Source: Candidatus Norongarragalinales archaeon (GTDB taxonomy: Archaea; Micrarchaeota; Micrarchaeia; Norongarragalinales; Norongarragalinaceae). From it: a DNA stretch of 30,673 bases. Every line of letters starts with the position of its first letter. Position 1 is the stretch's first letter. This document shows positions 1 through 8,727 of this stretch, in pieces. The position numbers and the translations under genes are program-made. Under the pieces are notes generated by a model. The model ran no database searches, was not told where the DNA came from, and saw nothing but the letters and a program-made list of their open reading frames with translations. Location: the NCBI GenBank assembly GCA_035291125.1, contig DATDSY010000078.1, forward strand, positions 1 through 30,673, read 5' to 3'.

Positions 1-2853
1 ACCGAGGCGATTACGCGCAATTCTCACGAATTCCGGCCGTTAGGCATAGGCTACGCCAACCTCGGCGCGCTGCTGATGAGCGAAGGCTTGGCGTACGACG
101 GCGACGACGGAAGGAATTTCGCTGCAGCGATAACGGCGTTGCTGAGCGGCCACGCGTATTACGTTTCCACGCTCATCGCCAAAAAGCTCGGTGCATTCGG
201 CGGTTATGCGGCAAACGAAAAGCCGTTTTTGAATGTGATTTCCATGCACCGCGACGCTGCATACTCGATTCCAGAGGAAAACGTGGACCAAAACGTCTTG
301 CGCGAGGCGAGGGAAGCGTGGGATGCGGCGTTGGAAAGCGGAAAGAAAAACGGGTTCCGCAACTCGCAGATTTCGGTACTCGCGCCCACGGGCTGTCTTG
401 TTGGCGATTCCCTAGTTTCCACTGATAGAGGGCTGGTAAGGCTATCCACACTTGGAAACGCAAACGGCGACAGGTGGCAGGACGTTGATTTCGCAGTTTC
501 AACAGATGAAGGCAACAAACGCGCGACAAAATTCTTTATCAACGGGGTTGAAGCGACGCGAAAAATCAAGACTTCGGCGGGCTATGAAATACAGGGAACG
601 CTGAAGCACAAGATAAAAGTTGTAGACAAGCAATCCGGCAAGCTCGTTTGGAAAAAGTTTGCGGAAGTCGAAAAAGGCGACGTGGTGCCCCTCGCACTCA
701 ACACAATCATAGGCGACCCCAAGGCGGTTGCGCTGCCGCCGCTCGGCGAATATTATTGGGCAGGAAATTCGGAAGCAAAAGTTCCGAGAAACGTCACGCC
801 AGAACTTGCAGAACTCGTCGGCTATTTCATGGGCGACGGAAGCTTGCATAGCAAAGGCCTGCGCTTCTGCGTTTCGCAAGAAGACCAAGACGTGGTCGCC
901 CACTTGGCCGAATTGGTTAAAAAACTTTTCAACTTGGACGCGCATGTTTCACAGCAAACGGGATATATCGAAGTGGCAGTCCACAACGTTCCGCTAGTAA
1001 TATGGTGGGAAGCGTGCGGTTTTGCAAAAAAACCGCACGATGACGGCGGAACTGGCAAGGGTTACACGCCGCACATTCCGGACTCAATTCTCTACGCGAA
1101 CGACAAGAAAGTATACTCCGCATTCCTGCGGGGGCTTTTCGAGGCGGATGGAACGGTCACCAACGGCGCGCCCACGTGGACTACGGCATGCAAATCTTTT
1201 TCCAACGACGTCAAGAGCATGATGTTGGCGCTAGGGTATCCGACTACGACCAAAATAGACGTAAGCGGATGGGGACAGTCGGACATTTACGCGACGAGGA
1301 TACGCAACTTTTCATTCAACACGCAGTTCCTCAACGAAATCGGCTTCATTGGAATGAGGAAGACGAAGCTCGTCGCAGTGCAGTCGGCATACCAAGCGGG
1401 CAAGAATGATTTGATATACTTGCCGTCCGATGTGGCTTGCAACCAAAACGCAAGCGAAAGCTTGAGGAAAAATGCAATCCAATCGTTCAAGAGGAATTCT
1501 GCAGTAAGCAGGCAGCTTGCAGTCCAGCTTTACAAGGAAATCCACGACGAGCGGCTTGTGCAATCCATGAAATTCTTTTACGACGCCGTGGGCTCTAACG
1601 AGGACGGCGGAGAACAGCCGACTTTCGACTTGTCCGTCCCCGAGAACGTCACTTACACCGCAAACGGCTTCGTAAGCCACAACACCATCGGATTCCTGAT
1701 GGACTGCGACACCACGGGCGTGGAGCCCGACATCGCATTGATCAAGTACAAGTGGCTCGTGGGCGGGGGTCTCATGAAAATCGTCAACACCACGGTTCCC
1801 CTTGCGTTGGAAAAGCTGGGGTACAAGCAAAACGAAATCGTCGACATCATGGGTTATTTGAACGAGCACGAGACCATCGAAGGAGCTCCGCACTTGAAGC
1901 AGGCGCACTTGCCTGTTTTCGACTGCGCGTTCAAGCCTTCGAAAGGCATTCGCTCGATACAATACCTCGGCCACGTGCGCATGATGGCCGCGGTCCAGCC
2001 TTTCATCAGCGGGGCAATAAGCAAAACGGTTAACCTTCCGGCTGATGCTACTGCGGGTGACATTGAAAACGCGTACATGCAGGCGTGGAAGGGCGGGTTG
2101 AAGGCGATTGCAATATACCGAGACGGTTCCAAGCGAACTCAGCCTTTGACTACTTCGAAAACCGAGTCGAAAGCGCGTGGCGCTGAAGAGCGGATAGTAT
2201 ACATGCCCATGCGCCAGCGGTTGCCTGACGAACGCCAGGCAATAACTCACAAGTTTGCCATCGCCGGGCACGAAGGCTATATTACGGTGGGTTTGTATGA
2301 AGACGGGAGGCCTGGAGAGCTGTTCGTGACAATGGCGAAAGAAGGGAGCACGATATCGGGTTTGATGGACGCTTTTTCCACAGCCGTTTCCATCGCGCTG
2401 CAGTACGGCGTTCCGCTCAAGGTGTTGGCGAAAAAATTCAGCAACATGCGCTTCGAACCTTCGGGAGTCACGGGCAACGAGCAAATCCGGTTTGCGAAAA
2501 GCATTACCGACTACATTTTCAAGTGGCTGGCGTTCAAGTTCCTGGGAGACGGGGATTTGGAAGACTTGGGCTTCAACCCGGAAGAACGCAATTCCCTGCA
2601 GACCAAGCTCGACGCTTCGCTGCACAGGACTCTCGCCGACAAAGTCACCCCGCAATATTCCGAAAGCGGGGTTCCGACCGAGAAGATTTTGAAGGACGAG
2701 TCGAAAGTGCGGTTTGTGGAGCAAGGCAAGGAAGAGAAAACTTTCGAAAACCAGAGCGACGCGCCCGTGTGCGACGACTGCGGAAGCATCATGGTGAGAA
2801 GCGGCTCGTGCTACAAGTGCTTCAACTGCGGCTCGACCAGCGGATGCTCGTAA
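1..2853 (+). CDS. nrdJ: Class II (adenosylcobalamin-dependent) ribonucleotide reductase, 5'-truncated by the window edge, intein-containing
   Basis: Frame is open from base 1 (TEAITRNSHEFRPLGIGYANLGALLM...). Motifs: RPLGIGYANLG, VLAPTG|TIGFLMDCDTTGVEPD, QPFISGAISKTVNLP, GLKAIAIYRDGSK. C-terminal TSCPD-like region (GYITVGLYEDGRPGELF, FEPSG) and a CxxC...CxxC...GCS tail. Confidence 0.95.
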   Translation, partial: TEAITRNSHEFRPLGIGYANLGALLMSEGLAYDGDDGRNFAAAITALLSGHAYYVSTLIAKKLGAFGGYAANEKPFLNVISMHRDAAYSIPEENVDQNVLREAREAWDAALESGKKNGFRNSQISVLAPTGCLVGDSLVSTDRGLVRLSTLGNANGDRWQDVDFAVSTDEGNKRATKFFINGVEATRKIKTSAGYEIQGTLKHKIKVVDKQSGKLVWKKFAEVEKGDVVPLALNTIIGDPKAVALPPLGEYYWAGNSEAKVPRNVTPELAELVGYFMGDGSLHSKGLRFCVSQEDQDVVAHLAELVKKLFNLDAHVSQQTGYIEVAVHNVPLVIWWEACGFAKKPHDDGGTGKGYTPHIPDSILYANDKKVYSAFLRGLFEADGTVTNGAPTWTTACKSFSNDVKSMMLALGYPTTTKIDVSGWGQSDIYATRIRNFSFNTQFLNEIGFIGMRKTKLVAVQSAYQAGKNDLIYLPSDVACNQNASESLRKNAIQSFKRNSAVSRQLAVQLYKEIHDERLVQSMKFFYDAVGSNEDGGEQPTFDLSVPENVTYTANGFVSHNTIGFLMDCDTTGVEPDIALIKYKWLVGGGLMKIVNTTVPLALEKLGYKQNEIVDIMGYLNEHETIEGAPHLKQAHLPVFDCAFKPSKGIRSIQYLGHVRMMAAVQPFISGAISKTVNLPADATAGDIENAYMQAWKGGLKAIAIYRDGSKRTQPLTTSKTESKARGAEERIVYMPMRQRLPDERQAITHKFAIAGHEGYITVGLYEDGRPGELFVTMAKEGSTISGLMDAFSTAVSIALQYGVPLKVLAKKFSNMRFEPSGVTGNEQIRFAKSITDYIFKWLAFKFLGDGDLEDLGFNPEERNSLQTKLDASLHRTLADKVTPQYSESGVPTEKILKDESKVRFVEQGKEEKTFENQSDAPVCDDCGSIMVRSGSCYKCFNCGSTSGCS
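394..1683 (+). mobile_element. Intein (430 aa) with LAGLIDADG homing endonuclease, inserted in the RNR APTG|T motif
   Basis: Starts CLVGDSLV (Cys1), ends YTANGFVSHN followed by Thr. LAGLIDADG blocks LVGYFMGDGS and FLRGLFEADGT. Removing it restores APTG-TIGFLMDC. Confidence 0.95.
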
Positions 2854-2881
2854 ACGCTTTTTATCCGGGGGGGCAAAGGCA

Positions 2882-3397
2882 ATGGCAGGAAAGATTTACA
2901 CCAAGACCGGCGACGAGGGCTATACTAAAACAATGGCCGGCGAAAAGCTCGCCAAAAACGATGCGGTGGTCATAGCTAACGGCAAAATCGATTCGCTGCA
3001 AGCTTCGCTCGACGCTGCCCGCCTGCAATGCACGCAAGACAAGAGCCTTGCGGACAAGATTGATTGGGTGCAGGAAAAGCTGTGGCAAAGCGGCGGGGAA
3101 GTTTCCCTCGGAAGAACGGGGGGAATCGTGAAAAACCCGGTAACGCAGAAAGACGTGGAAAAACTAGAAGAGTGGATTGACGGGTATTGCGAAGGCAAGG
3201 AATTCCGCCAGTTCGTCCGCTTTCACTCTGCGAAGGCCATTGCGTTGAACGAATCGCGAGTGCGCTGCAGGGAAGCGGAAACCGCGCTCTTGCCTTTGCT
3301 CAACAAGCGGATAACGAGCGAAACGTTCAGGTTTTTCAACCGCCTGGGGGATTTTATTTACGCTGCTGCATGCGATTGTGAAGGCGCAGGGAACTGA
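2882..3397 (+). CDS. pduO: ATP:cob(I)alamin adenosyltransferase, PduO type
   Basis: N-terminal KIYTKTGDEG, then RVRCREAET and FFNRLGDFIY, resembling the PduO RxxxRRAER and YLNRLSD motifs. Directly follows nrdJ. Confidence 0.85.
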   Translation: MAGKIYTKTGDEGYTKTMAGEKLAKNDAVVIANGKIDSLQASLDAARLQCTQDKSLADKIDWVQEKLWQSGGEVSLGRTGGIVKNPVTQKDVEKLEEWIDGYCEGKEFRQFVRFHSAKAIALNESRVRCREAETALLPLLNKRITSETFRFFNRLGDFIYAAACDCEGAGN

Positions 3398-3402
3398 AGA
3401 AA

Positions 3403-3864
3403 ATGAAAAAAACATTTTTGGTTGCGGCGTTGCTGCTGGCACTGCTTTTTGCGGGATGCGTTTCGCAAGGCCAGCCTTCAGCCTCGCCTAGCGCAACAGC
3501 CGAGCTTTCGCAAGCGGCTACGCCGACAATTACACCTAGTCCAACTATCGAAAGCGGATTGCTTGAAATAAACGTGATAATCAACGCGCCCCCGCGCGAC
3601 TACTTAAAAACCATTCCCGTCGAAGTGGCGGAGGGCGCGAGCGCGCTGGAAGCTTCGGCAAAAGCGGTCGAGATTGGCGTTAAAAACTATTCTTTCGGAG
3701 CATACGTCTTCTCTGTGGACGGCATCAATGAAAGCAACAGCGAAGGCCTGTACTGGCAGTTCTATTTCAACGGCAAGCTCGCGCCCGTGGGAGCAAACGA
3801 CTTCAAGCTCTCGCAAAAAGGCATTCTCGAATGGCGTTTGGAAAAACCCCAGTTGGGCGGCTGA
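3403..3864 (+). CDS. Lipoprotein with a DUF4430 / transcobalamin beta-domain-like C-terminus
   Basis: Lipobox-like signal (MKKTFLVAALLLALLFAGC), Pro/Thr linker, then FVFSVDGINES...YWQFYFNGKLAPVGANDFKL, typical of DUF4430-like domains. Confidence 0.75.
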   Translation: MKKTFLVAALLLALLFAGCVSQGQPSASPSATAELSQAATPTITPSPTIESGLLEINVIINAPPRDYLKTIPVEVAEGASALEASAKAVEIGVKNYSFGAYVFSVDGINESNSEGLYWQFYFNGKLAPVGANDFKLSQKGILEWRLEKPQLGG

Positions 3865-3887
3865 AGCCGCAGCGAAGCAAAAAAAAA

Positions 3888-4502
3888 CTATTTTATTGCC
3901 TTTTCCAAAATCAGGAACGCGGCCCACGCGCCTCTCTCGCGGTCCAACGCCCTTTTCGCGAAACTCAAAAGGAAAACGCTGTTTTCGCGCGGCGTGAAGG
4001 CGGATGAAAGCAAAACCGAATCTTTCCGCGCGACCGCGTCGCGCGTTCCCAAAAACAAGAACCGGCCGTCCTTGAGTGAGAGGGAGAGCAATCCGTCGGA
4101 ACCGGCTTTCACCGCTGCATCGCGCACTGCTATGGAAACGCTGACCGAAGGTTCTGCTGCGACCGAACACTGCAAGCAGAAAGAAGGGCGTTCGAAAGTC
4201 GAGTAAAGCGGGGGCAATTGCTTCGCTCCGCCAACGCGCGCGCAAAGCCTTTCGAACAGCCGCACGCCCTTTTCCGAAAGCATGCTTCCCGCGCGTATTT
4301 TCCGTGCCAATCCGCGTGCCTCTAGAAACGCGGCTATCGAACGCACTGTACCTTCGCCCAAGTCTAGCGACTCTGCCAAATCCTTCCTTCCCACGAGCTT
4401 CTTCCGCCCGAGAATCCAGAATGCGCGCAGCACGTCTTCGAAAACGAATTTCGGCATCGGCCCGAAAGCCTTTTCCTCGGGCTTCAAAAGCGAAAAGTCC
4501 AT
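3888..4502 (-). CDS. Archaeal winged-HTH protein, PH0730/DUF4443-like; putative transcription regulator
   Basis: N-terminal HTH (VGRKDLAESLDLGEGTVRSIAAFLEARGLA...GSMLSEKG) plus an alpha/beta C-terminal domain (VRDAAVKAGSDG). Family recalled by pattern only. Confidence 0.6.
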   Translation of the reverse strand: MDFSLLKPEEKAFGPMPKFVFEDVLRAFWILGRKKLVGRKDLAESLDLGEGTVRSIAAFLEARGLARKIRAGSMLSEKGVRLFERLCARVGGAKQLPPLYSTFERPSFCLQCSVAAEPSVSVSIAVRDAAVKAGSDGLLSLSLKDGRFLFLGTRDAVARKDSVLLSSAFTPRENSVFLLSFAKRALDRERGAWAAFLILEKAIK

Positions 4503-4525
4503 AACGCAAACAAGCGGTTTCGTGC

Positions 4526-4571
4526 TTTTAAACTGGATGCATCATCCAAACGAATTAATATTGGATGCATC
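4526..4571. promoter_or_regulatory. Bidirectional TATA-like box plus palindromic operator-like repeats
   Basis: TTTTAAA at 4526-4532 lies ~24 nt from the ATG of the minus-strand HTH gene. TGGATGCATC occurs twice (4534-4543, 4562-4571). CATCCAA-N11-TTGGATG is an inverted repeat. Confidence 0.55.
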
Positions 4572-4603
4572 GAAGTCCGTATCCGATTACGCAAGGTGGG
4601 TTT

Positions 4604-6217
4604 ATGGACAGCAAAACTGCAATCGCAATAGTCTTTGCCGCGCTCGCGGCATTCTCAATCCCTGCACACGCTTTTTCCACCACTGCTGCGTTTGCGTGGC
4701 TTGACTCCCACCACACCGTCGGCTCTTACGGCTTTGCTGGCGCGAACGCGCTTGCGCTCACGGCTTTGGTAGAGTGGAGCGAAAACGCGCAGTTGCAGTC
4801 GCAGCTCGCAAACGCCATTAAGGCGGACCTGAACGACAACTCTTCCTGGAATTGGGCTGAGGCGGACTTGCCGTCGATTCAATTCTGGGCTTTGCACAAA
4901 ACAGGATTCGCTTCAACTGGAATCGATTCTGCAACGCTGTCGCAAAAGATTTTGGCTTTCAAAGGCCAGCATGGCGGGTTCACGGGATTGCAGGAGTGCG
5001 TTGCGAACTGCACCGACCCGAACTGGCAAAACCAAGTGTGGCAGCCCGTCGAAACCACTACAGATACAGCGTTGGTTTTGCTTGCGCTCGAAAGCGCAGG
5101 CACGCTGGATTCGCAAACCAAAAATGATGCCATTGCATTCCTTAGCACTTTGCAAAATGAAGACGGCTCGTTCAAGCAGTCTCTTTCCACCGGCGAAACT
5201 TCGCTCTACGCGTTGGGGCCTGATTTCGTTTCAACCACTTCGCTCGCACTGCAAGCAATGCAGCAAACCGGCTTCGGAGGAACGCCTGAGGCTGCAAAGG
5301 CAGTCGCTTTCCTAAAGCAGAAAGCCCGCTCGTGCTTCGGAAATTCCGGGAGCGTGTACGGGCCTTCGCGCGCGGCAGTCGCTTTCGCAAAATCGGGCGA
5401 AAACGCGTTTGCATCGTCAGCAGCAGCTTATGCAGCGCTCTCGCAAAAGCAGGACGGCGGTTTTGCCGACCCGCTTCGCTCGCAGTCCGACTCCAACGCC
5501 ATGGATACGGCAATGGCTTTGCTGGCGGCGAAAAACATTGCTGAAAACGCGGTTGCATGCGCGCCTTTGAGCGCTGCCCTAGCGTACAACACGCCTATTT
5601 TTCCGGGCAATGCGCAGCCCATGCGCATTACTGCAGAGGGGGCGGTGGAAAACGTTTCCTTCACTGTAACAAAGCCTTCCGGAGGGTTCGTCGAATTGCA
5701 GGCGCAGCAAACCCAGCAAGGGGTTTTCGAAACCGTTTTTTCCAACACAGCGGAAGCGGGGAATTATTCCATTCTCGCGACGATCATAGCCATGCAAGGC
5801 GGGAGGCTCGTGAAAAGCGGGGTTTTCGAAGTCAAAAGCGCTTCAGCCTCCCCCACTCCGACGCCCACGCCTACGCCAACACCATCCCCGTCAAACCAGG
5901 AGATAAAGGTCGTGTTTGTAACTCCCTATCCAACCCCCACTGCAACGCCGTCCATAACTCCTACTCCCACGCCTTCGCCAACGCCGCAGGAGCGTGAAAC
6001 TGCGAAGGAAAGCGTTTCGACAAAGCAAAACGAGGAAGCGACTACGCCGTCTGGCTTGACAGCGCTTGCCGCTGCAAAGCCGAACGCATGGTTTTCATTC
6101 AGCGTCGACGAAAAAAACATAGCGCTTTCACTCAACCCCATCGTTTTTATTAGCCTGCTCGCCCTAGGGATTATTTTCTCGTTATACAGGAAATGGAATA
6201 AAGTGAATTGGAAATGA
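4604..6217 (+). CDS. Secreted, C-terminally anchored prenyltransferase/squalene-oxidase-repeat (alpha/alpha barrel) protein
   Basis: ATG at 4604 after an AAGGTGGG RBS. Signal peptide (FSIPAHA|F). Repeats FKGQHGGF, LQNEDGSF, SQKQDGGF with DTALVLLAL, STTSLALQAM, DTAMALLA. Then a beta-rich domain, PT linker, C-terminal TM and basic tail. Confidence 0.75.
   Translation: MDSKTAIAIVFAALAAFSIPAHAFSTTAAFAWLDSHHTVGSYGFAGANALALTALVEWSENAQLQSQLANAIKADLNDNSSWNWAEADLPSIQFWALHKTGFASTGIDSATLSQKILAFKGQHGGFTGLQECVANCTDPNWQNQVWQPVETTTDTALVLLALESAGTLDSQTKNDAIAFLSTLQNEDGSFKQSLSTGETSLYALGPDFVSTTSLALQAMQQTGFGGTPEAAKAVAFLKQKARSCFGNSGSVYGPSRAAVAFAKSGENAFASSAAAYAALSQKQDGGFADPLRSQSDSNAMDTAMALLAAKNIAENAVACAPLSAALAYNTPIFPGNAQPMRITAEGAVENVSFTVTKPSGGFVELQAQQTQQGVFETVFSNTAEAGNYSILATIIAMQGGRLVKSGVFEVKSASASPTPTPTPTPTPSPSNQEIKVVFVTPYPTPTATPSITPTPTPSPTPQERETAKESVSTKQNEEATTPSGLTALAAAKPNAWFSFSVDEKNIALSLNPIVFISLLALGIIFSLYRKWNKVNWK
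5848..5985 (+). repeat. Pro/Thr/Ser low-complexity linker (SPTPTPTPTPTPSPS ... TPTPTPSPTP)
   Basis: Read directly in the translation; codons vary between units. Confidence 0.85.
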
Positions 6218-6738
6218 AAATTCTCGACAATGCAAAATTCGCATTAGGACTGGCATTGTGCGTGCTGGCAAGGCTATTCACAGTCGCGCCCAACGTCGAG
6301 CCGATAATGGGCTTTACAATGCCTTACGCCAAGAAGTACGGCAAATACGCCGGCTTGGCCTTCGCGCTCATCGCAATGGTTTCAATCGACTTTTTCACCC
6401 AACGGCTGGGATTGTGGACGCTTTACACCGCAGGCGCTTACGCGATAATCGGCTTTGCGGCTGGAAAGTTTTTCGAAACGCGCAAATCCAATCGCACAAA
6501 CTTTCTCACATTCGCTGTCGCAGGCACGCTTTTCTTTGACGTTGCAACGGCATTGCTGTTCGGATGGCAATTCCGCCAGCCCCTCGAGCTTACGCTGTTG
6601 GGGCAAATTCCATTCACCGCAAGCCACCTGCTTTCGAACTCTATTGCAGCTTTGCTCCTGTCACCCGCGATAGCGTGGGCTTTGGACCGAACCCCCTCGC
6701 CGGCGCTTTCACCCGATGCGGCTAAAAGGATAGCTTAA
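6214..6738 (+). CDS. ECF transporter substrate-binding (S) component, CbrT-like (probable cobalamin specificity)
   Basis: ~174 aa with about 6 hydrophobic segments. LARLFTVAPNVEPI resembles the CbrT-type PNV(Q/E)P motif. ATG overlaps the upstream stop (ATGA at 6214-6217). Confidence 0.7.
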   Translation: MKILDNAKFALGLALCVLARLFTVAPNVEPIMGFTMPYAKKYGKYAGLAFALIAMVSIDFFTQRLGLWTLYTAGAYAIIGFAAGKFFETRKSNRTNFLTFAVAGTLFFDVATALLFGWQFRQPLELTLLGQIPFTASHLLSNSIAALLLSPAIAWALDRTPSPALSPDAAKRIA

Positions 6739-6800: not shown

Positions 6801-8024
6801 GTGAGATTGTCTACTTTTGAAAACGCGCTGAAACAACTCGAAAACGCATTCGCACTTTCAGGCGTAAGCCAAGAAACTCGGTTGCGCCTGCAAAACCCCC
6901 AGCGCATAATCCAAACAACTTTTCCCGTGCAAATGGACGGAGGGAAAGAACGCATTTTCTACGGCTACCGCGTGCAGTACGACAACGCTCGCGGCCCGTT
7001 CAAAGGCGGAATCCGCTACCACCCGAAAGTTGATTTGGATGAAGTGAAGAGCCTTGCATTCTGGATGGCAATCAAATGCGCCGTTGCAAACATTCCCTAC
7101 GGCGGGGGCAAGGGCGGAGTCGAAGTTGACCCGAAGCAATTGAGCAAAAGCGAGCTGGAAAGACTGAGCCGCTCGTTCATTCGTTCCATTGCAGATGCTA
7201 TAGGCCCGGACAAGGATATTCCAGCCCCGGACGTCAACACCACGCCCGAAATAATGGATTGGATGGAAGACGAGTACTCGAAAATAACCGGCGACACGAG
7301 CGGAGCGGTGATTACCGGCAAAAGCGTTGCGAACGGAGGGCACGAGGGGCGCGAGGATGCCACTGCGAGAGGAGGGTTTTTCGTTTTCCAGGAAGCGGCG
7401 AAAGCGTTCGGCATTCCTGCAAACGCAACGGCTGCAATCCAAGGCTTCGGCAACGCAGGCTGGTTCATGGCAAAATTCCTGCACGAAGCAGGATACAAAG
7501 TCGTTGCCGTAAGCGACTCGAAAGGCGGTATTTACGACGAAAAAGGATTGGACGTAGATTCGGTCAAGCAATTCAAGGATTCCGGGAAAAGCGTTGAGGA
7601 TTACGGCAAGGGAAGCAAAGTTTCCAACCAAGCGCTTTTGGAACTGCCGGTCGACGTGCTTGTTCCCGCCGCGTTGGAAAACCAAATCACCGAACAAAAC
7701 GCCCCGCGCATCAAAGCCAAAGTTATTCTCGAATTGGCGAACGGCCCGACCACTCCGCAGGCTGAAGAAATCCTTTCCAAACGCGGGATAACCGTAATTC
7801 CCGACGTGCTTGCTAACGCTGGCGGGGTTACGGGAAGCTATTTCGAGTGGAAGCAGAACAAGGAACGCGCAAAATGGAGCCTGGAAAAATACCGCGGCGA
7901 GCTCGAGAAAACAATGCGCATGGAATTCAATGAAGTCCTGCGCTTTTCGAAAGAGCACGAGTGCATCATGCGCACTGCCGCGTATGCGTTGGCGTTGCAA
8001 AGGATAGAGAAAGCAATGCACTGA
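6801..8024 (+). CDS. gdhA: Glu/Leu/Phe/Val dehydrogenase, most likely glutamate dehydrogenase
   Basis: GPFKGGIRYHP, GGGKGG, DIPAPDVNT, IQGFGNAG, ELANGPT, PDVLANAGGV..SYFEW. GGAGG RBS before the GTG. Confidence 0.92.
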   Translation: MRLSTFENALKQLENAFALSGVSQETRLRLQNPQRIIQTTFPVQMDGGKERIFYGYRVQYDNARGPFKGGIRYHPKVDLDEVKSLAFWMAIKCAVANIPYGGGKGGVEVDPKQLSKSELERLSRSFIRSIADAIGPDKDIPAPDVNTTPEIMDWMEDEYSKITGDTSGAVITGKSVANGGHEGREDATARGGFFVFQEAAKAFGIPANATAAIQGFGNAGWFMAKFLHEAGYKVVAVSDSKGGIYDEKGLDVDSVKQFKDSGKSVEDYGKGSKVSNQALLELPVDVLVPAALENQITEQNAPRIKAKVILELANGPTTPQAEEILSKRGITVIPDVLANAGGVTGSYFEWKQNKERAKWSLEKYRGELEKTMRMEFNEVLRFSKEHECIMRTAAYALALQRIEKAMH

Positions 8025-8025
8025 T

Positions 8026-8727
8026 TCACTTAAGCCCTTCCCACAGGATTTCTTCCTTTGACTCGACGCTCAACCCGTTGTCGTTTATCGTCAAAGGATG
8101 GATTTTCTTCGAGTGGTTTGTTCCGCGCATCTTTCGCACGAACATCGCGCGGTTGGGCGGAGAAAAGAACATTTGCAGCACGCCGTCCGTCAGGAATTCT
8201 TCGACCCCGAAGCGGGAGACCGCATGCTTTCCGGCAGGAGTTTCGCAAGTCAAGAGCGTGGTGCAGTCGAGCTTGCGCAACTCCTCGATCAGAGTGTAAA
8301 TAGCGAATCGTATTTGCCTTATGTCCTTCAGCCAGAATGCGAATGCGGTGACGCTGTCCACAACCAGGCGCTTGGCGTTGGTGCTCCGAGCCTTTTCTAT
8401 AATGCGTTCGACCTGCGCTTCTGGGCTGTCGAGAATCTCTTGCGTCGGCTCGAACTTGTAAATCTTTAGTTTACCCTCCCTCTCGAGGGAAACCAAATCC
8501 CACTTGAAGCGCTGGGTGTTCCACCAAATGTTGTGCGGGCCTTCCTCCATGGTAATGTAAACGCCGGGTTCGCCGTATTCCTTCGCGCCGTTGTACAAGT
8601 ACTCCATGCACAAAATACTTTTTCCCGTGCCCGCAGGCCCGGAAACTAGAATGCTGGACGCCTCAGGAAAACCGCCTTCAATCAATTCGTCCAAACCGGG
8701 AACGCCGCTCTTCACCCTATTCAACAA
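8026..8727 (-). CDS. Single-domain KaiC/RAD55-family ATPase
   Basis: RVKSGVPGLDELIEGG, Walker A GPAGTGKS, Walker B LVVDS, FLTDGV, VRKMRGTNH. Start is probably TTG at 8724 or 8727 after an AAGGTG RBS. Confidence 0.88.
   Translation of the reverse strand: MLNRVKSGVPGLDELIEGGFPEASSILVSGPAGTGKSILCMEYLYNGAKEYGEPGVYITMEEGPHNIWWNTQRFKWDLVSLEREGKLKIYKFEPTQEILDSPEAQVERIIEKARSTNAKRLVVDSVTAFAFWLKDIRQIRFAIYTLIEELRKLDCTTLLTCETPAGKHAVSRFGVEEFLTDGVLQMFFSPPNRAMFVRKMRGTNHSKKIHPLTINDNGLSVESKEEILWEGLK

Follow-up and report, generated by a model that had tools for sequence, protein, structure and literature searches.

We consider it likely that six adjacent genes at the start of contig C78 form a cluster for the salvage and use of cobalamin in a Micrarchaeota (DPANN) archaeon that is auxotrophic for B12. 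The window, i.e., the whole stretch of DNA that was studied, is this entire contig of 30.7 kb, which belongs to a Micrarchaeota metagenome-assembled genome (MAG) of 898 kb in 131 contigs. Because the MAG is only 78% complete, absences in the assembly are provisional. DPANN archaea and bacteria of the candidate phyla radiation (CPR) live on other cells and are without most cofactor pathways. To our knowledge, the route by which they are supplied with B12 for the synthesis of DNA precursors is largely undescribed.

An initial annotation, made from the sequence alone, had read these genes as a complete module that captures, imports, adenosylates and uses corrinoids. All six of its open reading frames (ORFs) were found where it had placed them, namely nrdJ, pduO, a DUF4430 gene, a gene for a helix-turn-helix (HTH) protein, a gene for a barrel-shaped surface protein and the S component of an energy-coupling factor (ECF) transporter. 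Direct reading confirmed the short gaps and the ATGA overlap within the gene blocks, and profile searches upheld both the DUF4430 call (PF14478) and the barrel call (PF13243, PF00432). The reading as a whole is well supported by independent lines of evidence: the match of the S component to CbrT, gene neighbourhoods, the DUF4430 profile, fusions and riboswitches. However, neither the word "complete" nor the view of the ribonucleotide reductase (RNR) as the only user of the vitamin could be sustained. The features are as follows.

1..2853, plus strand: nrdJ, class II (adenosylcobalamin-dependent) RNR, with a TSCPD C-terminal domain (NF005122, PF02867, PF12637)
394..1683, plus strand: intein of 430 aa in nrdJ, with a LAGLIDADG homing endonuclease (PF14528, PF14890, TIGR01443, TIGR01445)
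2882..3397, plus strand: pduO, ATP:cob(I)alamin adenosyltransferase (PF01923, 105.9 bits, cut-off 24)
3403..3864, plus strand: DUF4430/SLBB protein, membrane-anchored, lipobox-type (PF14478, 41.1 bits, cut-off 23.8)
3888..4502, minus strand: winged HTH regulator, PH0730-like_N plus DUF4443 (PF22167, PF21715, PF14544)
4526..4571, no strand: putative shared promoter/operator region (direct reading)
4604..6217 (ORF from 4565), plus strand: toroid surface protein, (alpha/alpha)6 (PF13243, SQHop_cyclase_C; PF00432, Prenyltrans)
6214..6738, plus strand: S component, CbrT-like and DUF6580-related, 174 aa (PF07155, 26.4 bits; profile A1 to 6FNP_A)

Judged by profile comparison, the S component is a homologue of CbrT, and it is a candidate cobalamin importer. 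A profile of 44 S-component homologues (profile A1) was run against the PDB, where its sole match was 6FNP_A (CbrT), with an E-value of 4e-9 over 141 of 181 positions; as a single sequence, the S component matches CbrT with an E-value of 5e-5. The motifs PNV[EQ]P and H..GN are common to the S-component family and CbrT in the comparison of profile A1 with 6FNP_A. The CbrT-type assignment of the initial annotation was also examined for clustering with non-B12 families, and CbrT proved to be the only PDB protein matched by the profile. The entry 6FNP shows ECF-CbrT, an ECF transporter for vitamin B12 from Lactobacillus delbrueckii, in which CbrT binds and transports cobalamin (PMC5997447). Four clear hydrophobic segments are seen in a simple hydropathy scan of our protein, the S-component architecture being about 180 aa and six helices. 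The gene overlaps the toroid gene by ATGA at 6214-6217, so that its start is translationally coupled to that gene. In a homologue search of 5.8 billion proteins, 111 relatives of the S component were found, which belong to Micrarchaeota, Nanobdellota, Paceibacterota and other CPR lineages.

The neighbourhoods of these relatives argue for a link to B12. A scan of species-representative genomes gave 508 loci with a relative of the S component, and the best 80 of them (56 CPR and 24 archaeal) were annotated using phmmer and hmmsearch. We counted as a cluster-type gene any RNR, pduO, DUF4430, toroid or HTH gene within the flanks of the S gene. DUF4430 was called with a domain-only hidden Markov model (HMM) and Pfam spot-checks, after an iterated HMM had been dropped for drifting onto toroid and Ig-domain proteins. 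At least one cluster-type gene lies beside the S gene in 64 of these 80 best loci. A class II-like RNR is present in 51 of the 56 CPR loci, RNR and pduO together in 36, and DUF4430 and toroid genes in addition in 13. The 24 archaeal loci include an RNR in 7 cases, DUF4430 in 10, DUF4430 with a toroid gene in 5 and a divergent HTH gene in 5. On the metagenomic contig L007, the genes follow one another in the order S component, RTPR-type RNR, pduO, DUF4430 and a protein with Ig and toroid parts.

We also compared 41 genomes of the same order, among which G003 and G004 belong to the same genus as our archaeon and G038 to another family. The S component occurs in 18 of these relatives, DUF4430 in 20 and both in 17. 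Synteny extends over the whole cluster in G003, G004 and locus L004. G038 retains it with protein identities of 30-45%, but its pduO is on a separate contig, and partial clusters are found in G027 (nrdJ-DUF4430-S), G031 (RNR-S), G033 and G035. Co-occurrence with nrdJ and pduO in relatives, on which the initial annotation had staked its reading, is thus seen in the syntenic clusters, and 17 of the 18 genomes with an S component also encode DUF4430. Every one of the 18 encodes a B12-binding radical SAM protein or has a match to RNR, 6 of these matches being strong against the NrdJ model, and therefore at least one candidate B12 enzyme accompanies each S component. The S gene adjoins a B12-binding radical SAM gene, and not an RNR gene, in G009, G018 and G019. 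The loci in question are G009:C14:8470-9278, G018:C33:2940-4866 and G019:C48:4133-5901, in genomes without nrdJ and pduO, and the radical SAM neighbours are of ~465-507 aa.

The DUF4430 protein is a candidate B12 binder resembling the beta-domain of transcobalamin. Its N-terminus resembles a lipobox (LLFAGC), and a Ser/Thr/Pro linker leads into the domain, which spans amino acids ~55-150. When a profile of 31 DUF4430 domains (profile A3) was run against the PDB, the only matches were haptocorrin (2e-6), transcobalamin (1e-4), intrinsic factor (9e-4) and 3U7Z, a DUF4430 structure. Its candidate partner in B12 capture is the toroid protein. The toroid gene most likely starts at the ATG at 4604, which gives 537 aa as in the recorded protein (P0115) and has GGTGG 4 nt upstream. 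The predicted layout is a signal peptide, a toroid at amino acids ~20-330, a beta-rich domain, a Pro/Thr linker and a C-terminal transmembrane anchor. An AlphaFold2 (AF2) model of the toroid domain is an (alpha/alpha)6 barrel with a pLDDT of 94. Comparison of this model with PDB 7TEM, the putative exported protein YPO2471 of Yersinia pestis, gave a Z-score of 22 and a root-mean-square deviation of 3.0 A, close to terpene cyclases. We considered whether the toroid alone could be classified as a member of the transcobalamin alpha-domain family and rejected this, as terpene cyclases, thioester domains (TED) of alpha-2-macroglobulin (A2M) and prenyltransferases rank first.

In seven relatives (G012, G018, G019, G022, G027, G030 and G031), a toroid and a C-terminal DUF4430 domain are encoded in one ORF, which is the domain order of transcobalamin; Pfam confirms the fusion in three of the seven (G012, G030 and G031). 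When an AF2 model of the G012 fusion was compared with the PDB, transcobalamin, haptocorrin and intrinsic factor took the first 14 places over both domains, with TM-scores that are low because the orientation of the domains differs or is uncertain. Where the two domains are encoded separately, the two genes form a fixed pair, DUF4430 first and toroid second, in 13 loci of CPR bacteria and 5 of archaea. An AdoCbl (adenosylcobalamin) or AdoCbl-II riboswitch scoring above the gathering score lies directly upstream of this pair in 8 of 11 CPR loci. These riboswitches (L081 5127-5208, L064 9883-9973, L101 11402-11528 and five more) are located between pduO and the DUF4430-toroid pair, and not before S-RNR-pduO. 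In the CPR loci, only the capture proteins appear to be repressed by B12. A prediction of a complex between the toroid and DUF4430 domains, made with the ligand absent, had a score of 0.00, which is neither support nor counter-evidence. It is the ligand that keeps the two domains of transcobalamin together.

The control region of the archaeal cluster is different. The HTH gene is convergent with the DUF4430 gene (gap of 23 nt) and divergent from the toroid gene (gap of 101 nt). Its protein matches PDB 2P8T with an E-value of 5e-10, and this uncharacterised protein, PH0730, is its only solved relative. Of the 41 related genomes, 11 encode PF14544 (DUF4443), in all 11 cases in a gene that adjoins the toroid gene and diverges from it. 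The region between the HTH and toroid genes has the sequence TTTTAAA at 4526-4532, the palindrome TGGATG-CAT-CATCCA at 4534-4548 and a second one, TGGATGCATC, at 4562-4571. G003 and G004 share the first palindrome, while G038 has a CATCC-GGATG palindrome. Rfam gave no family at its gathering score anywhere in the window, and thus no cobalamin riboswitch upstream of the uptake genes, which agrees with the initial annotation. Since the HTH gene occupies the position that the riboswitch has in CPR operons, it is a reasonable hypothesis that its product would be a corrinoid-responsive repressor.

The candidate consumer of the imported vitamin within the cluster is the class II RNR. The nrdJ frame is open from base 1, and the 5' end of the gene is lost at the end of the contig. 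Against NF005122, the gene scores 660.8 bits over model positions 554-960, and model positions 422-554 are matched at nucleotides 1-396; the E-value is 2.8e-198 over the portion present, which covers only model positions 422-960. That it falls short of the cut-off for the full-length model is due only to the loss of the N-terminal ~420 positions beyond the end of the contig. The intein-free orthologues in G003 and G004 exceed 1440 bits, against a cut-off of 859. This nrdJ is the sole RNR large-subunit match in the assembly, and a genome-wide search of the 78%-complete assembly did not find NrdD. The class II call of the initial annotation is therefore retained, with the correction that the gene is truncated at its 5' end and interrupted by the 430-aa intein. 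By direct reading, the intein junctions are APTG|CLVGDS and VSHN|TIGF, with Cys1, a terminal His-Asn and Thr+1. An intein at the same site is absent in G003, G004 and L004. L004 carries an intein at another position of nrdJ, and several insertions are found in G027, G033, G035, G037 and G008.

The nrdJ and pduO genes are separated by 28 nt, and pduO and the DUF4430 gene by 5 nt. The match of PduO to PF01923 covers profile positions 1-169 of 171, while its 82.2 bits against TIGR00636 are under the equivalog cut-off of 108. Across the 41 relatives, PduO tracks the long NrdJ type. The pduO match of G003 (L024 10090-10591; G003:C81) is in two pieces in different frames, which would be a frameshift or an assembly error. 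In Micrarchaeota relatives (L003 1377-1832, L004 594-1043), nrdJ is preceded by genes for a bacterial-type NrdR (Zn-ribbon and ATP-cone) and a NUDIX protein. NrdR was not found in our assembly, where the region upstream of nrdJ is missing. The presence of NrdR in an archaeon hints that the nrdR-nrdJ block is of bacterial origin.

Taken together, these genes suggest the following mechanism. The DUF4430/SLBB lipoprotein and the toroid protein, both tethered to the membrane, would play the parts of the two domains of transcobalamin and capture corrinoids outside the cell. The captured corrinoid would then pass through the CbrT-type S component across the membrane, as its homology implies. The S component might be driven by the EcfA-EcfT pair encoded on another contig, C57, or might act alone like BtuM. 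Going by their families, PduO would adenosylate cob(I)alamin, and the resulting AdoCbl would serve the class II RNR NrdJ. The imported cobalamin probably also supplies two or three B12-binding radical SAM enzymes. Finally, the PH0730-like/DUF4443 HTH protein, encoded at the position of the CPR riboswitches, probably controls the toroid-S operon by way of the GGATG palindromes beside the TATA box.

Several observations weigh against this reading, and those that concern the S component and the toroid protein each suggest an alternative. The S component scores 26.4 bits against PF07155, a riboflavin S-component family that is its top Pfam match, just under the cut-off of 26.7. It has no match to PF20221 (DUF6580) at an E-value of 0.01; this family is matched by 12 of the 44 aligned homologues, and DUF6580 is the NCBI name of a 65%-identical relative. 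Some homologues of the S component, moreover, lie in unrelated neighbourhoods. Given that the specificity of S components cannot be read from sequence alone, the protein might import some other micronutrient, e.g., riboflavin or a nucleoside-related compound, and its adjacency to nrdJ and pduO would then reflect co-inheritance instead of shared function. However, CbrT is the only match among the solved S components, which include the RibU, ThiT, BioY and FolT types. In many species across two domains of life, S genes are found next to pduO and to B12 enzymes of two unrelated classes, and the partner genes are under AdoCbl riboswitches in CPR bacteria. In addition, a separate S component accompanied by a riboflavin-kinase regulator exists on C57. 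We regard import of another micronutrient as very improbable. As for the toroid, its nearest structures are squalene-hopene cyclase (Z-score of 24), other terpene cyclases, A2M thioester domains and prenyltransferase beta, and transcobalamin is not in the top 50 structural matches in profile and fold searches of the PDB. It could be a generic surface protein, A2M/TED-like or terpenoid-binding, that has no role in B12 capture and leaves the vitamin to DUF4430 and the S component. The copy in the window has no fused DUF4430 domain, and several clusters (G027, G033) have DUF4430 and S genes without a nearby toroid gene. Against this stand the seven orthologues fused to DUF4430, the fixed gene pairs, the AdoCbl riboswitches that precede the pair in CPR loci, and the translational coupling of the toroid gene here to the S component. 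A generic toroid is accordingly an unlikely explanation in our estimation.

The remaining contrary observations affect how cobalamin would be imported and used. Seven relatives have the S component and DUF4430 but neither NrdJ nor PduO, i.e., the uptake part is not tied to the RNR; strong B12-binding radical SAM genes are present in all seven of them. Only 6 of the 18 relatives with an S component (and 9 of all 41) gave an EcfT match, and no EcfT was found in G003 and G004, both of which have the full cluster. As the ECF motor seems to be missing from most of these genomes, the S component may work without it. It would then act by itself in the manner of BtuM or of a solitary BioY, with EcfA and EcfT on C57 serving their own neighbour. 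The 12 relatives in which EcfT was not found include genomes that are 90-95% complete, and EcfT was likewise not found in the four tested CPR genomes with S-RNR-pduO. BtuM itself is a precedent, being a solitary S-component-like B12 transporter that works without an ECF module (PMC6072759). On the other hand, our genome and some relatives do encode EcfA and EcfT, CbrT, the homologue that has been characterised, depends on the ECF module for its transport activity (PMC5997447), and incompleteness of the MAGs or a divergent EcfT could hide a module. We see solitary action of the S component as a serious possibility, while leaning slightly away from it; it is a variant compatible with a cobalamin salvage-and-use cluster.

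The single EcfA-EcfT pair of the genome lies on C57, after another S component. This region of the contig (L002 4132-8434) encodes an HTH-fused CTP-dependent riboflavin kinase, a 473-aa protein without a Pfam match, a 289-aa S component, one EcfA and a short, 192-aa EcfT, and is likely to be a cluster for a riboflavin ECF transporter. No other EcfT was found in the genome. Genome-wide searches did not find CbiB, CobS or FecCD/BtuC in this 78%-complete MAG, whose incompleteness also counts against our reading, and gave only sub-threshold matches to GATase_3. The initial annotation had noted a lack of B12 biosynthesis genes in the window; genome-wide, the absence of CbiB and CobS agrees with this, within the limits of such an assembly. 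No cob(II)alamin reductase was identified. To call the module "complete" is an overstatement, as the energising EcfA and EcfT are on another contig and perhaps dispensable, EcfT is missing in most relatives with the cluster, no reductase came to light, and the absences come from an incomplete MAG. Nor is the RNR the sole likely user of B12, because the genome also encodes two or three radical SAM proteins with B12-binding domains.

The cluster is an extension of published systems and not a new principle, being the archaeal form of a module that is known from lactic acid bacteria and is common among ultra-small bacteria. The initial annotation knew of no such arrangement in DPANN-type archaea. 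We found no description of the cluster in the literature on DPANN or Patescibacteria with cobalamin, ECF or RNR, a search that covered open-access papers only and is weak evidence of novelty. However, the kind of arrangement is known, both as nrdJ-cbrS-cbrT-pduO and as scavengers with toroid and SLBB domains. The former is the cluster of Lactobacillus delbrueckii (Rodionov et al. 2009, as cited in Santos et al. 2018, PMC5997447), and in L. rhamnosus a DUF4430 gene adjoins rtpR (PMC9963975). Like the Lactobacillus ECF-CbrT cluster, ours combines a class II RNR, PduO and an S component homologous to CbrT, in a putative B12 auxotroph that would import and adenosylate cobalamin for its RNR. In contrast to it, the archaeal S component is distant from CbrT (profile E-value of 4e-9) and belongs to a DUF6580-like branch typical of CPR and DPANN, a surface toroid protein and a divergent HTH regulator are added, the RNR is of the long NrdJ type with an intein, and the ECF module is unlinked and often undetectable in relatives.

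Burroughs, Balaji, Iyer and Aravind (2007) predicted that proteins with SLBB and alpha/alpha toroid domains, encoded with CbiO/CbiQ-type genes, are B12 scavengers in non-producers; the archaeal examples known to them were mainly in B12 producers (PMC1796856). Such proteins, and likewise transcobalamin, intrinsic factor and haptocorrin, share with our pair an SLBB/DUF4430 domain and an alpha/alpha toroid that are secreted or anchored at the surface, and the fused relative of the toroid retrieves these three eukaryotic carriers first in a fold search. They differ in that the window has separate membrane-anchored polypeptides with a regulator gene between them, its toroid is closer to terpene cyclases than to the transcobalamin alpha-domain, and this archaeon appears to be an auxotroph and not a producer. 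The CPR/Patescibacteria operons (S-RNR(II)-pduO-[AdoCbl riboswitch]-DUF4430-toroid; L046-L116), for which we found no describing paper, have homologous S, DUF4430 and toroid proteins together with class II RNR and PduO as partners. Unlike the archaeal cluster, they have another gene order, a monomeric RTPR-like RNR, larger toroid proteins with Ig-like domains, and control by an AdoCbl riboswitch where the archaeon has the HTH protein. Finally, BtuM is also a small cobalamin membrane protein with the S-component fold whose hosts have no ECF module, as seems to be the case for most relatives of our S component. However, no sequence match to BtuM was detected (profile A1 matches CbrT only), and our genome has an EcfA/EcfT pair.

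The cluster and its hundreds of homologues point to one importer family and a transcobalamin-like capture device that are common to two domains of life. The variant features here are a binder split over two anchored polypeptides, an HTH protein instead of a riboswitch, and the frequent lack of EcfT. The uncharacterised archaeal regulator family PH0730/DUF4443 gains a defined candidate operator. It is tempting to generalise further, namely that the DUF6580/CbrT-like proteins of DPANN and CPR are ECF-independent importers fed by a split transcobalamin that is clamped by its ligand, and that the Micrarchaeota HTH protein is a corrinoid-responsive repressor that replaces AdoCbl riboswitches. In this combined form, the proposal is tentative and rather doubtful.

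Other variants of the neighbourhood were seen in Micrarchaeota. In L045, L054 and L057 (Fermentimicrarchaeum and other Micrarchaeota), the HTH and S genes flank a gene for a protein of 425-445 aa with a CarboxypepD_reg/DUF4198-like Ig domain and no recognisable toroid, and the L054 version of this protein has an N-terminal DUF4430 domain. Following the cluster, positions 6801-8784 of the window encode a glutamate dehydrogenase and a single-domain KaiC-like ATPase, which have no evident link to B12 and are syntenic in G003, G004 and L004.

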